Positions 61,262-64,000 of a DNA stretch of 64,000 nucleotides are shown here, piece by piece (within the stretch, counting starts at the first letter, position 1; each line of letters starts with the position of its first letter). Where the stretch lies: the NCBI RefSeq assembly GCF_057098645.1, contig NZ_CM169472.1. One strand, 5' to 3'. Made by a program: the position numbers.

Positions 61262-64000
61262 TAGGCCGGAAAAGAGGCGCCAGCATCGCATTAGGCAATA
61301 GCGCCCAGGCTACGCCAAATGCGCTCCCCTCGTCACTGGAAACAAGTAACCAGACCAGGTTTATTGGCTAACGTGATACTACAATCCTCTGTGCCAGTGC
61401 TCTCGTCCATCCCACACCGTTGAGAGGACAAGTAAGGGAAACTTGGCGAAGCTGGCCATCCCAGCGAATTAAACACAGCATACAATGTCTCTAACTCATT
61501 GTATGTCGGTGCATTTTCTATATTTCCACACTGCTTCGAGATATCCCATTTGCTGGCATCAGTAATATGCGCAGAAGCCCAGTTTTCGTAGTTAATAATC
61601 GGTGAGGATACGGGATTGGCCCCGGACGGTAATTCAGTTGTCAGTATCGGTCGATGTAATGTTTTTCCATTCACCACTGCCGTGTCTGCCATATGCCCCC
61701 AGAAGTGAGCAGAAGATACATTTGGGCTGGTCAATACGGTGAAAATAGTGTCCATCATTGCAGTCACTGTTGAGTATTTATCCAGCGTTACCGTCAGCGG
61801 CGTTTTATAACCCGGCGTATTGTTCTGACGAACAGTAAAGTTTGCCGTGCCGTCTGCCCCCGTCACGCCACTGATCTCGTTCCCACTAACCGCCAATAGG
61901 GTAGCCGCCCCCGATGATGGCTGGATGGTAATATCATCCATAGCCGCCACATCGCCATATAGCGTCGCCCCACTATTACGCGGAGAGGCATCACCACGTC
62001 GCAGAGTAAACGCCACATTTGGCACAGGTTTCCCGGCGCTGTCTTTCACCGTCACGGTGACTGGCATTGCCTCGCCCTTCTTCACTTTCGCCGCCTGAGC
62101 GGTGGAGTCAAATGCCGTTGACGTCAGGGTGACGGTAGAAACCGTTGAGTGAGGGTGCACCAGGCACGCCTGGAAGGCGCGGCTTTTAGATACAGTAACA
62201 ATTTGACCTGTATTGAAGTCAAATGATTCACAAGAATTCGCGCCCGCAGGACAATCTGCATTTGTCCACCACACATAGCTATTCTGTTTCACCGGCCAGC
62301 CAATCTCATTGACGATAGAGCCATTCGGATAGCGGTTGTATAAAGATTGAAGCTCATCCAACGATGGATATCGTGCGGTTTCACAAGGGGTAAGCTCCGG
62401 CAAATATCGCTGGGTAATATATGGCGCAGGCCAGCTTTCATTATTTATATTCACTTTAGTGAGCGAATAACCGCCACCGCTGGTTGCCCCCATTTCGGCC
62501 CACAGTTTCATCCGCTCAAACTGCGTTCCGTCTGCTGAGCTTACCGTTTCTGGCATATGTCCCCAGAAGTTGGCTTTTGGCGTATCCGGGCTTGTTACTA
62601 CGGTATACATCAGGTCGAGATCTGACTTCACCGCTGTTTTGCGCGCAAGCGTCGCCGTAAACGGTGTTACCAGTCCCCAGGTATTATCCTGCGTAGCGGT
62701 TAACGTGATGATGCCATTACCGTCCGTAACCCCGTTCCAACTGGCGTTATCATCTGCAAATTTGTAATTGGCTTGCGCAACCGGCGTCAGGAACTGTAGC
62801 AGCAGATCATCTGCTGTCGAGCTTTTGAAATCACTCGTAGTGCGCACTTGTGCTGTCGCACGCGACAACGTGACGCTTTCATAGGCGGCAGGTCTGCCCG
62901 CATCATCCGTGACCTTGATGGTTAACGGTATTGATTCGCCCTTCTTCGCCCATGCGGTCGGACGGTTGTCGTTGATGCCTGTTTTGTCCGCATTCAGCAA
63001 CGTAGAGGTCAACTCAATCTTCGTTGCCTCAGTGTGCGGGTCAACCAGGCAGAGCATTAAATTGCCCGCCGTCGATGTTGTGCTTTCGTTGCGGATAGCA
63101 CCGTCCATCAGATTAAGCACCTGGTTATACCATGTTGAACTTGAAACAGTTTGATCGTACGCCCACCAGTAATTACCTGCGTTAAGAGGCAGCCCCAAAT
63201 CAGTTTCCAGCGCACCATTTGGATGGTCGTTGTAAAGCCCCATTAGCTCGCTACTGAAGGGTTGATAAGGCGAAGTGCAGCCTGAGATCGAACTGTTCGC
63301 TTTGTTCGTTGCATCTGGTCGCGCCCAGTCTTCATTGTTGATGTTAAAGGACGCGGTCCCGGACAACTCGGCCTTCAACTGTGGTCGCCTGAACTTGACG
63401 CCCGCGCTACTGGTAAAGGTTTCCGGCATATGGCCCCAGAAATTAGCTAACGGCGTATCCGGGCTGGTAATGGTGGTAAAAATCGCACTCAACTCAGTTG
63501 ATGTTCTTCCACTACCGTCATCAATGCTCGCCGTTAGTGGAATACGTCCACCTATCCCCTGATAATTTTGATAAATGGTAAACGTTAACGTGCCGTCAGG
63601 CCCGGTCATGCTGTAGAACTTCTGACCATCATTAAAATAACCGTTGGAGTTATTGTAGCTATCCCGAACATAAATGAGTTTTGTCTGATTGGTGATCTTC
63701 TGTGTATTAGCCGTACTCTTCGTACGCGGTACCGTGGTGCCGTGGTTTAACGTAAACGGCACATACCCCATCGGATTGCCCGCAGCATCTTTCGTGGTCA
63801 CCGTCAGGGTGATGGTATCTCCGGTATCGCTGTAATCGGTTCGTACTTTCACCGCATCAACATTGTCATATTTCGCGGTTTGCGTTGATGTCAGCTCAAT
63901 CGAGTTCACCGGCGGATTCGCGGTAGTCTGACAGGTTAAATACCCCAGGTCTGCCGATGCAAGGCTTTTGCTGGTGCCTTTGCTAATATCCACGGACATA

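Follow-up and report, generated by a model that had tools for sequence, protein, structure and literature searches.

Salmonella reportedly has two rat paralogues, with shdA between them and xseA (Kingsley et al. 2003), and Escherichia coli a single such gene; in the same study the Salmonella ratB gene is reported to aid caecal colonisation in mice, with no phenotype found for ratA. InvE of Yersinia pseudotuberculosis, solved as Protein Data Bank (PDB) entry 5N40, and the tips of invasin and intimin are also among the closest known systems. Here we analyse a stretch of 64,000 nucleotides from NCBI RefSeq assembly GCF_057098645.1 (contig NZ_CM169472.1), hereafter the window, which ends inside a reverse-strand gene convergent on xseA. 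This gene, here called ratA-like, belongs to the Rat family, and we consider it quite probable that it encodes the RatA-like repeat adhesin of the E. coli ila island, brought to the cell surface with the assistance of SinH and binding multivalently through lectin-like domains.

The E. coli cluster of sinH, sinI and ratA has been named the ila locus and is described as derived from CS54, the corresponding island of Salmonella, and the interval from xseA to yfgJ is a genomic region that ExPEC (extraintestinal pathogenic E. coli) has in common with strain LF82 (PMC12928451; PMC12525524). According to these two papers (both citing Shea et al. 2022), deletions of the ila cluster attenuate uropathogenic E. 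coli (UPEC) in mouse urinary tract infection, and the published attenuation points to the invasion of bladder cells and to ascension (PMC12928451). SinH, or IatB, has been proposed to act like ZirT, as a translocator for co-encoded proteins that lack a barrel, with the Rat-like proteins as hypothesised substrates (Heinz et al. 2016, PMC4943183; Goh et al. 2019, PMC6714894); for the mediation of biofilm formation, IatB/SinH suffices in the absence of the gene downstream (PMC6714894). The locus is a recognised colonisation and virulence island, and SinH is under development as an ExPEC vaccine antigen.

The last gene of a three-gene island

The open frame at the end of the window comprises 888 stop-free codons and runs past base 64000. 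It closes with a TAA at 61333–61335, and the ATG at 63999 is internal, corresponding to Met1252 of the full protein. E. coli C325 (NZ_CP124819) matches the final 3 kb of the window at 100% identity, and over the last 23 kb, the part compared base by base, six positions differ. In C325 the full gene is 6420 bp long and encodes 2139 amino acids, under the RefSeq product name 'adhesion domain-containing protein'. An initial annotation, made from the sequence of the window alone, had the frame leaving the window edge and the protein exceeding 888 amino acids; extension upstream, through genomes identical over the stretch, bears this out and gives an intact, uninterrupted frame rather than a pseudogene remnant.

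In the RefSeq annotation of C325, xseA is followed by the ratA-like gene, a SinI-family gene, sinH, yfgJ (encoding a zinc-ribbon protein) and der. The last four lie upstream of the ratA-like gene and on the same strand, sinI and sinH are intact, and the product of sinH is an intimin-like inverse autotransporter. Four further E. coli alleles have the same gene order. In a K-12-type genome yfgJ directly adjoins xseA, as the initial annotation had it. In the window strain xseA and yfgJ are thus separated by some 10 kb of inserted DNA, sinH–sinI–ratA-like, of which the ratA-like gene is the last. This locus is ila of E. coli, the counterpart of CS54. In the stretch of Salmonella Infantis (CP040601) used for comparison, which does not include xseA, the order is der, yfgJ, sinH (with an IAT_beta domain), sinI, ratA (1867 amino acids), ratB and shdA, in the orientation seen in E. 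coli, and the match of the two gene orders agrees with the placement at the CS54 locus first suggested. The Infantis ratB is called as two overlapping open reading frames (ORFs) of 177 and 2295 amino acids, which suggests a frameshift near its 5′ end.

The GC content of the island (0.50–0.53) shows no contrast with the flanks, except at the AT-rich 5′ end of sinH and in the yfgJ region, and composition is therefore silent on origin. Rfam gave no matches in window positions 59000–64000. The E. coli ribosome-association toxin that is also named RatA (YfjG) was considered and rejected as unrelated. Because RefSeq annotates the gene and the literature describes the locus, the element itself is already known.

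Seven modules of an Ig-like and a lectin-like domain

Within the window fragment, Pfam identifies three successive pairs of BIg21 (PF05688) and InvE_AD (PF05689, 'adhesion domain'), with E values from 1e-16 to 6e-32, and the full protein has seven such pairs. Its overall architecture is a signal peptide, a conserved N-terminal domain (N-domain) of about 180 residues and seven modules of 243–291 residues, with SP..WGHM motifs at residues 323, 591, 859, 1140, 1430, 1721 and 2009. The initial count of at least three tandem modules is correct for the window, but the full gene has seven. Each module is a BIg21 domain packed against an InvE_AD domain, the latter folded like the tip of InvE, an inverse-autotransporter adhesin of Yersinia whose 5N40 structure is matched by sequence at E 5e-17; an AlphaFold2 model was built for module 6. 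The match to InvE lends support to the suggestion that the second domain is lectin-like. Two weaker observations are consistent with a C-type-lectin-like binding scaffold, namely a sub-threshold Pfam Lcl_C match and a classification that places DUF823 alongside DUF1566 motifs within the C-type-lectin (CLec2) variable regions found in diversity-generating retroelements (PMC5758913). As opposed to the Big_1 domain named in the initial annotation, the Ig-like domain is BIg21; Big_1 (PF02369) gives sub-threshold matches only (E 0.05–3.5, and 0.05–0.3 in the window fragment). Neither IAT_beta nor any other barrel domain matched in residues 1–1200 or in the last 888 residues, and the β-barrel of the island sits in the separate SinH protein.

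The signal peptide, read from the sequence without a predictor, is of Sec type (MDGTLKLIKAITAVFLLFLSFQVGA, with the cleavage site before V). The N-domain that follows has no Pfam match and is 49–76% identical to the N-termini of E. coli and Salmonella Rat proteins, with 44 invariant columns. AlphaFold leaves its first 20 mature residues disordered and predicts a β-sandwich for the rest, for which no significant neighbour was found in the PDB; comparisons of the N-domain profile and of SinI with PDB sequences likewise gave no matches.

The initial annotation had recognised a giant RatA/RatB-type gene of many Ig-like and adhesion-domain modules converging on xseA, and the best NCBIfam models agree: the full protein scores 3190.6 bits with RatA-like (NF011844), 1887.6 with RatB (NF011842) and 1650.6 with RatA (NF011843). 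The curated equivalog cut-offs are 3870, 4079 and 3700 bits, respectively, and the protein falls below all three. The window gene is a member of the family and the equivalog of none of the proteins that these models define.

Modules are old and strongly diverged

Across the 64-kb window, CATATGKCCCCAGAA is found exactly three times, at 61690, 62554 and 63427, where the initial annotation had given about 61691, 62556 and 63426, and the DNA motif CATATG(G/T/C)CCCCAGAA occurs at the same three sites and no others; none of 100 shuffles contained three matches to the DNA motif. The spacings of 864 and 873 nucleotides (nt) fit the module length of about 870 bp that had been proposed. The peptides encoded there are TSPDTPLANFWGHMPET, TSPDTPKANFWGHMPET and TSPNVSSAHFWGHMADT. 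Of a peptide motif first described as nearly invariant, two of the three window copies are indeed almost the same, but the third has diverged.

The description of the repeats as long and near-identical does not hold. Tandem Repeats Finder detects no arrays in window positions 60500–64000, and the sole DNA repeat found is a 66-nt core whose copies are 67–77% alike. Compared in pairs, whole modules share 28–37% of residues and 42–47% of codon-aligned bases, and the longest exact word common to any two of them is 15 nt. Among 26 modules from four alleles, 20 positions are invariant (T..TSP....A..WGHM, R(P).L..E, E.W, P, G.P and a Cys), and residues outside them are free to vary. The modules are old and strongly diverged.

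Deep allelic lineages in E. coli

Homologues of the ratA-like gene were found in 1749 genomes of the 5426 complete ones available for E. coli in the collection searched. The window-type allele, defined by at least 95% identity, is rare (46–48 of the 5426 genomes, about 0.9%), and the remaining homologues have 60–80% DNA identity to it. Its carriers are mostly enterohaemorrhagic E. coli (EHEC) of serotype O145:H28, joined by bovine, primate, porcine and human isolates. The alleles of LF82 (phylogroup B2) and of sequence type 131 (ST131) have nine modules and encode 2683 and 2693 amino acids; they are about 62% identical to the seven-module window allele. TC_EC10 carries an allele of the nine-module type with an internal stop.

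From one allele to another, modules correspond as orthologues by position, modules 1–4 and the last two pairing off, and the seven-module allele lacks two central modules of the nine-module alleles. Identity between the window allele and those of LF82 and ST131 is 72–80% in modules 1–2, 63–79% in the last module and 42–57% in modules 4–6. The allele of F2_81 is a mosaic, 97–99% identical to the window allele in modules 1, 2, 6 and 7 and 73–85% identical in modules 3–5, a pattern that indicates recombination between divergent ratA alleles. Between the two allele types the companion proteins differ as well, SinH being 85% and SinI 48% identical. The window-type SinI is 68% identical to Salmonella SinI and 48% to SinI of LF82 and ST131, and, since it is nearer to Salmonella, the O145:H28-type island either forms a deep lineage of its own or was acquired separately. 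At about 62% identity, the seven- and nine-module alleles are old lineages, not recent products of slippage. Variation at this very polymorphic locus comes from deep allelic lineages, mosaic recombination and decay, and the divergence of modules and alleles suggests diversified binding or antigenic surfaces as opposed to repeat-number switching.

A shared motif behind the signal peptide and a proposed route of export

The Rat-like proteins compared were those of five alleles from E. coli, RatA and RatB of Salmonella, and some 30 fragments from databases; all of them share, a few residues past the signal-peptide cleavage site, the invariant motif WQ-x8/9-[IVF]NGTxP-xAD-x-A-x2-P[VL]YQGS. The word-indexed protein search made with the N-domain returned short fragments from E. 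coli and Salmonella only, and so informs the motif and not its taxonomic breadth. SinI carries (G)QWQ..T..[IF]QGT[VI]PW in the equivalent place, leaving (G)xWQ..T..[IF][NQ]GT[VI]P as the core common to the Rat-like proteins and SinI. No description of this motif was found in the literature searched. We suggest tentatively, as a possibility that may well prove wrong, that it is a targeting signal by which SinH recognises and exports the cargo encoded with it, because a flexible N-terminal peptide carried in common by the island's barrel-less proteins would be expected of such a signal. If true, it would give a handle on the long-proposed 'type Ve two-partner secretion' of proteins of 200–300 kDa.

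From the architecture and context of the gene we infer a path from export to binding. The Rat-like protein would be exported by Sec. SinH would then serve as its two-partner translocator, as ZirT does for ZirS and ZirU, and either pass it through the outer membrane or keep it there. The lack of a barrel in the protein, the weak match of SinI to the ZirU family and the motif common to SinI and the Rat-like proteins lend support to this route. Up to seven different lectin-like domains would thereby be presented on a stalk resembling beads on a string, and could provide multivalent attachment to host ligands, or to mucus or glycans, during colonisation.

The xseA border and the rest of the window

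On the left, the island is bordered by xseA (Table 1). Over its first 1200 nt, the window xseA is 89–100% identical to that of K-12 per 100-nt block, and mostly 95–100%. Its last 180 nt or so (about 61088–61264) are 62–71% identical to K-12 and resemble other island-bearing strains, and the C terminus of XseA departs from ...EDGWIESEVKNIQ.... This drop in identity places the left junction of the island inside xseA, which is therefore mosaic. A scan of the gap between xseA and the ratA-like gene for intrinsic terminators and promoters found no consensus.

Window positions 1–59800 hold, according to the annotation of C325, ordinary E. coli core genes (eutSPQ, maeB, tal-tkt, narQ, acrD, the hyf operon, purMN, ppk-ppx and guaBA), and nothing unusual was seen there. 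Within them, yfgI (DUF5384; 55995–56521) is split over two frames, with ORFs at 55995–56306 and 56012–56521; C325 and an ST131 strain carry the same frameshift in their RefSeq annotation.

Table 1 Coordinates of the ratA-like gene, its parts and its relatives. Locations are window positions unless preceded by a stretch number (L001 and so on), which refers to the genome named in the row.
Feature	Location	Strand	Remarks
3′ part of ratA-like gene, 888 codons + stop	61333..63999	-	Frame, NCBIfam RatA-like/RatB/RatA, C325 match
Module 7 (aa 1897–2139; last, shorter)	61336..62064	-	BIg21 61732–62076, InvE_AD 61411–61725; C terminus ...GLVTCFQ, then stop
Module 6 (aa 1609–1896)	62065..62928	-	BIg21 62596–62940, InvE_AD 62164–62589
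Module 5 (aa 1318–1608)	62929..63801	-	BIg21 63469–63822, InvE_AD 63046–63462
Module 4, C-terminal end (aa 1252–1317)	63802..63999	-	Truncated by window edge
FWGHM core of module 7	61690..61704	-	At InvE_AD start
FWGHM core of module 6	62554..62568	-	
FWGHM core of module 5	63427..63441	-	
xseA, 458 aa, left island border	59888..61264	+	TIGR00237, E 1e-161
Gap between convergent stops of xseA and ratA-like gene, 68 bp	61265..61332	.	
Full ratA-like gene, C325	L001:20334-26753		
N-terminal motif site, ratA-like gene, C325	L001:26600-26690		
sinI, window type, C325	L001:27048-28013		
N-terminal motif site, sinI, C325	L001:27900-27960		
Mosaic allele, F2_81	L002:10597-13173		
Decay variant, WL297	L007:7892-10818		486-nt ratA remnant, adjoining enlarged sinH (2451 nt); sinI gone
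sinI, Salmonella Infantis CP040601	L009:3190-4152		
ratB, Salmonella Infantis CP040601	L009:10001-17306		
Deletion allele, 14EC033	L010:1501-7086		833-nt out-of-frame deletion at CCTGAG microhomology; gene annotated as frameshifted pseudogene
Deletion allele, GDSC2227PM	L011:1501-9111		~303-nt deletion; gene annotated with internal stop (pseudogene); sinI, sinH truncated

Alternative explanations

Long repeats of this kind were taken in the initial annotation as substrates for recombinational length variation. A contingency-type adhesin, in which recombination between near-identical modules often alters their number from strain to strain, would be in keeping with the existence of seven- and nine-module alleles in E. 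coli and with the loss of about one module length (833 nt) in 14EC033. Among the 47 complete genomes with the window-type allele whose gene lengths were surveyed, however, 42 have exactly 6420 nt; the other lengths comprise three genomes with a 6411-nt mosaic allele, two with insertion sequence (IS) insertions and two deletions. Both deletions lie in genes that RefSeq annotates as pseudogenes, and that of 14EC033 is out of frame and sits at a short microhomology. The low identity of the modules in DNA and protein, the lack of a Tandem Repeats Finder array and a longest shared word below the requirement of RecA-dependent exchange all argue the same way, as does the age of the split between seven- and nine-module alleles. 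Neither of the marks of length-variable tandem-repeat genes, near-identity in DNA and in-frame repeat-number polymorphism among close relatives, was found here, and this highly improbable explanation is largely refuted. Alternatively, the gene could be what is left of an old island in decay, without function, its frame open by chance and its product neither expressed nor put to use in this lineage. Broken forms of the gene, be they pseudogenes, remnants, deletions or IS insertions, occur commonly across E. coli, roughly two thirds of the complete genomes are without it, and no strong promoter or terminator consensus marks its ends. Yet without selection a 6420-nt frame would be unlikely to stay intact and of identical length in 42 of 47 genomes, which come from different hosts; the 20 invariant module residues are all kept, as is the N-terminal motif, sinH and sinI are intact upstream, and the orthologous cluster is of consequence for mouse infection by UPEC (PMC12928451), so that decay of this kind strikes us as improbable.

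It is also conceivable that the protein is exported and yet is not a host-cell adhesin delivered by SinH, being instead a lectin released in soluble form, a protein that binds mucus or glycans, one that binds antibodies or complement, or an inter-bacterial aggregation factor; it might also reach the outside by another route. The adhesion domain belongs to a lectin-like scaffold whose ligands are varied, and the protein lacks both an anchor of its own and a known ligand. Yersinia InvD has been reported as an antibody or complement binder. The biofilm formation seen with IatB/SinH in the absence of the downstream gene (PMC6714894) can be read in the same direction, but synteny with an inverse autotransporter is kept in both E. 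coli and Salmonella, the closest relative with a solved structure is a surface adhesin's tip, and the published attenuation of ila mutants points to invasion of bladder cells and ascension (PMC12928451). We regard a function of this other kind as unlikely, though not negligibly so, and favour a RatA-like repeat adhesin exported with the help of SinH.

Several points weigh against that preference. The models for ZirS and ZirU do not match the Rat-like protein, and its score with NF011844 (3190 against 3870 bits) means that it is not an equivalog of the protein of UPEC and LF82. The gene is a pseudogene or remnant in several E. coli lineages, and is therefore dispensable in many backgrounds. The gap of 294 bp between sinI and the ratA-like gene contains two weak promoter-like sites only.

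The view of the gene family is unchanged by these results. What they add is a rare seven-module form in EHEC O145:H28, with identity of about 62% to the UPEC protein that has been studied; repeats that diverged anciently, and hence a gene that is not slippage-prone and variable in length; and an N-terminal motif, shared with SinI, as a candidate export signal.

Comparison with known systems

The window protein has the features of the Rat-like DUF823/DUF824 proteins, namely BIg21 and InvE_AD modules, a signal peptide followed by the Rat N-domain, and a gene in the xseA–yfgJ island downstream of sinH and sinI. The nearest relatives are the RatA-like proteins of the E. coli ila locus (CFT073/UTI89, LF82 and ST131; NF011844), which occupy the same site between xseA and yfgJ, in the same three-gene order, and have the same succession of signal peptide, N-domain and BIg21–InvE_AD modules. 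The window protein differs from them in having seven modules (2139 amino acids) as opposed to nine (2683 and 2693), in its identity of about 62%, with 48% for the companion SinI, in a score below the curated equivalog cut-off, and in being rare and found mainly in O145:H28. Salmonella RatA and RatB of CS54 (NF011843 and NF011842) have the same der–yfgJ flank, lie downstream of sinH–sinI and are built from the same type of module, and their N-domain is that of the window protein, including the WQ..INGTxP..PVYQGS motif. Identity to them is 29–54% per segment, RatB being slightly closer than RatA.

Similar to the inverse autotransporter adhesins of type Ve (intimin, invasin and InvE), the window protein carries a lectin-like adhesion domain on an Ig-like domain; unlike them, it has neither a barrel of its own (IAT_beta) nor stalk repeats of the Big_1 type. 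In the arrangement of its genes, the ila island resembles ZirT/ZirS/ZirU of Salmonella, where an inverse autotransporter gene is likewise followed by genes for Ig-rich proteins that bear a signal peptide and lack a barrel, and the ratA-like gene, encoding a barrel-less protein of the secreted type directly downstream of an inverse autotransporter gene, conforms to this pattern. SinI matches ZirU_fam weakly (E 1e-5; 25.8 bits, the cut-off being 100). Between the Rat-like protein itself and ZirS or ZirU no relation in sequence is detectable, and at 2139 amino acids it would be a far larger cargo.

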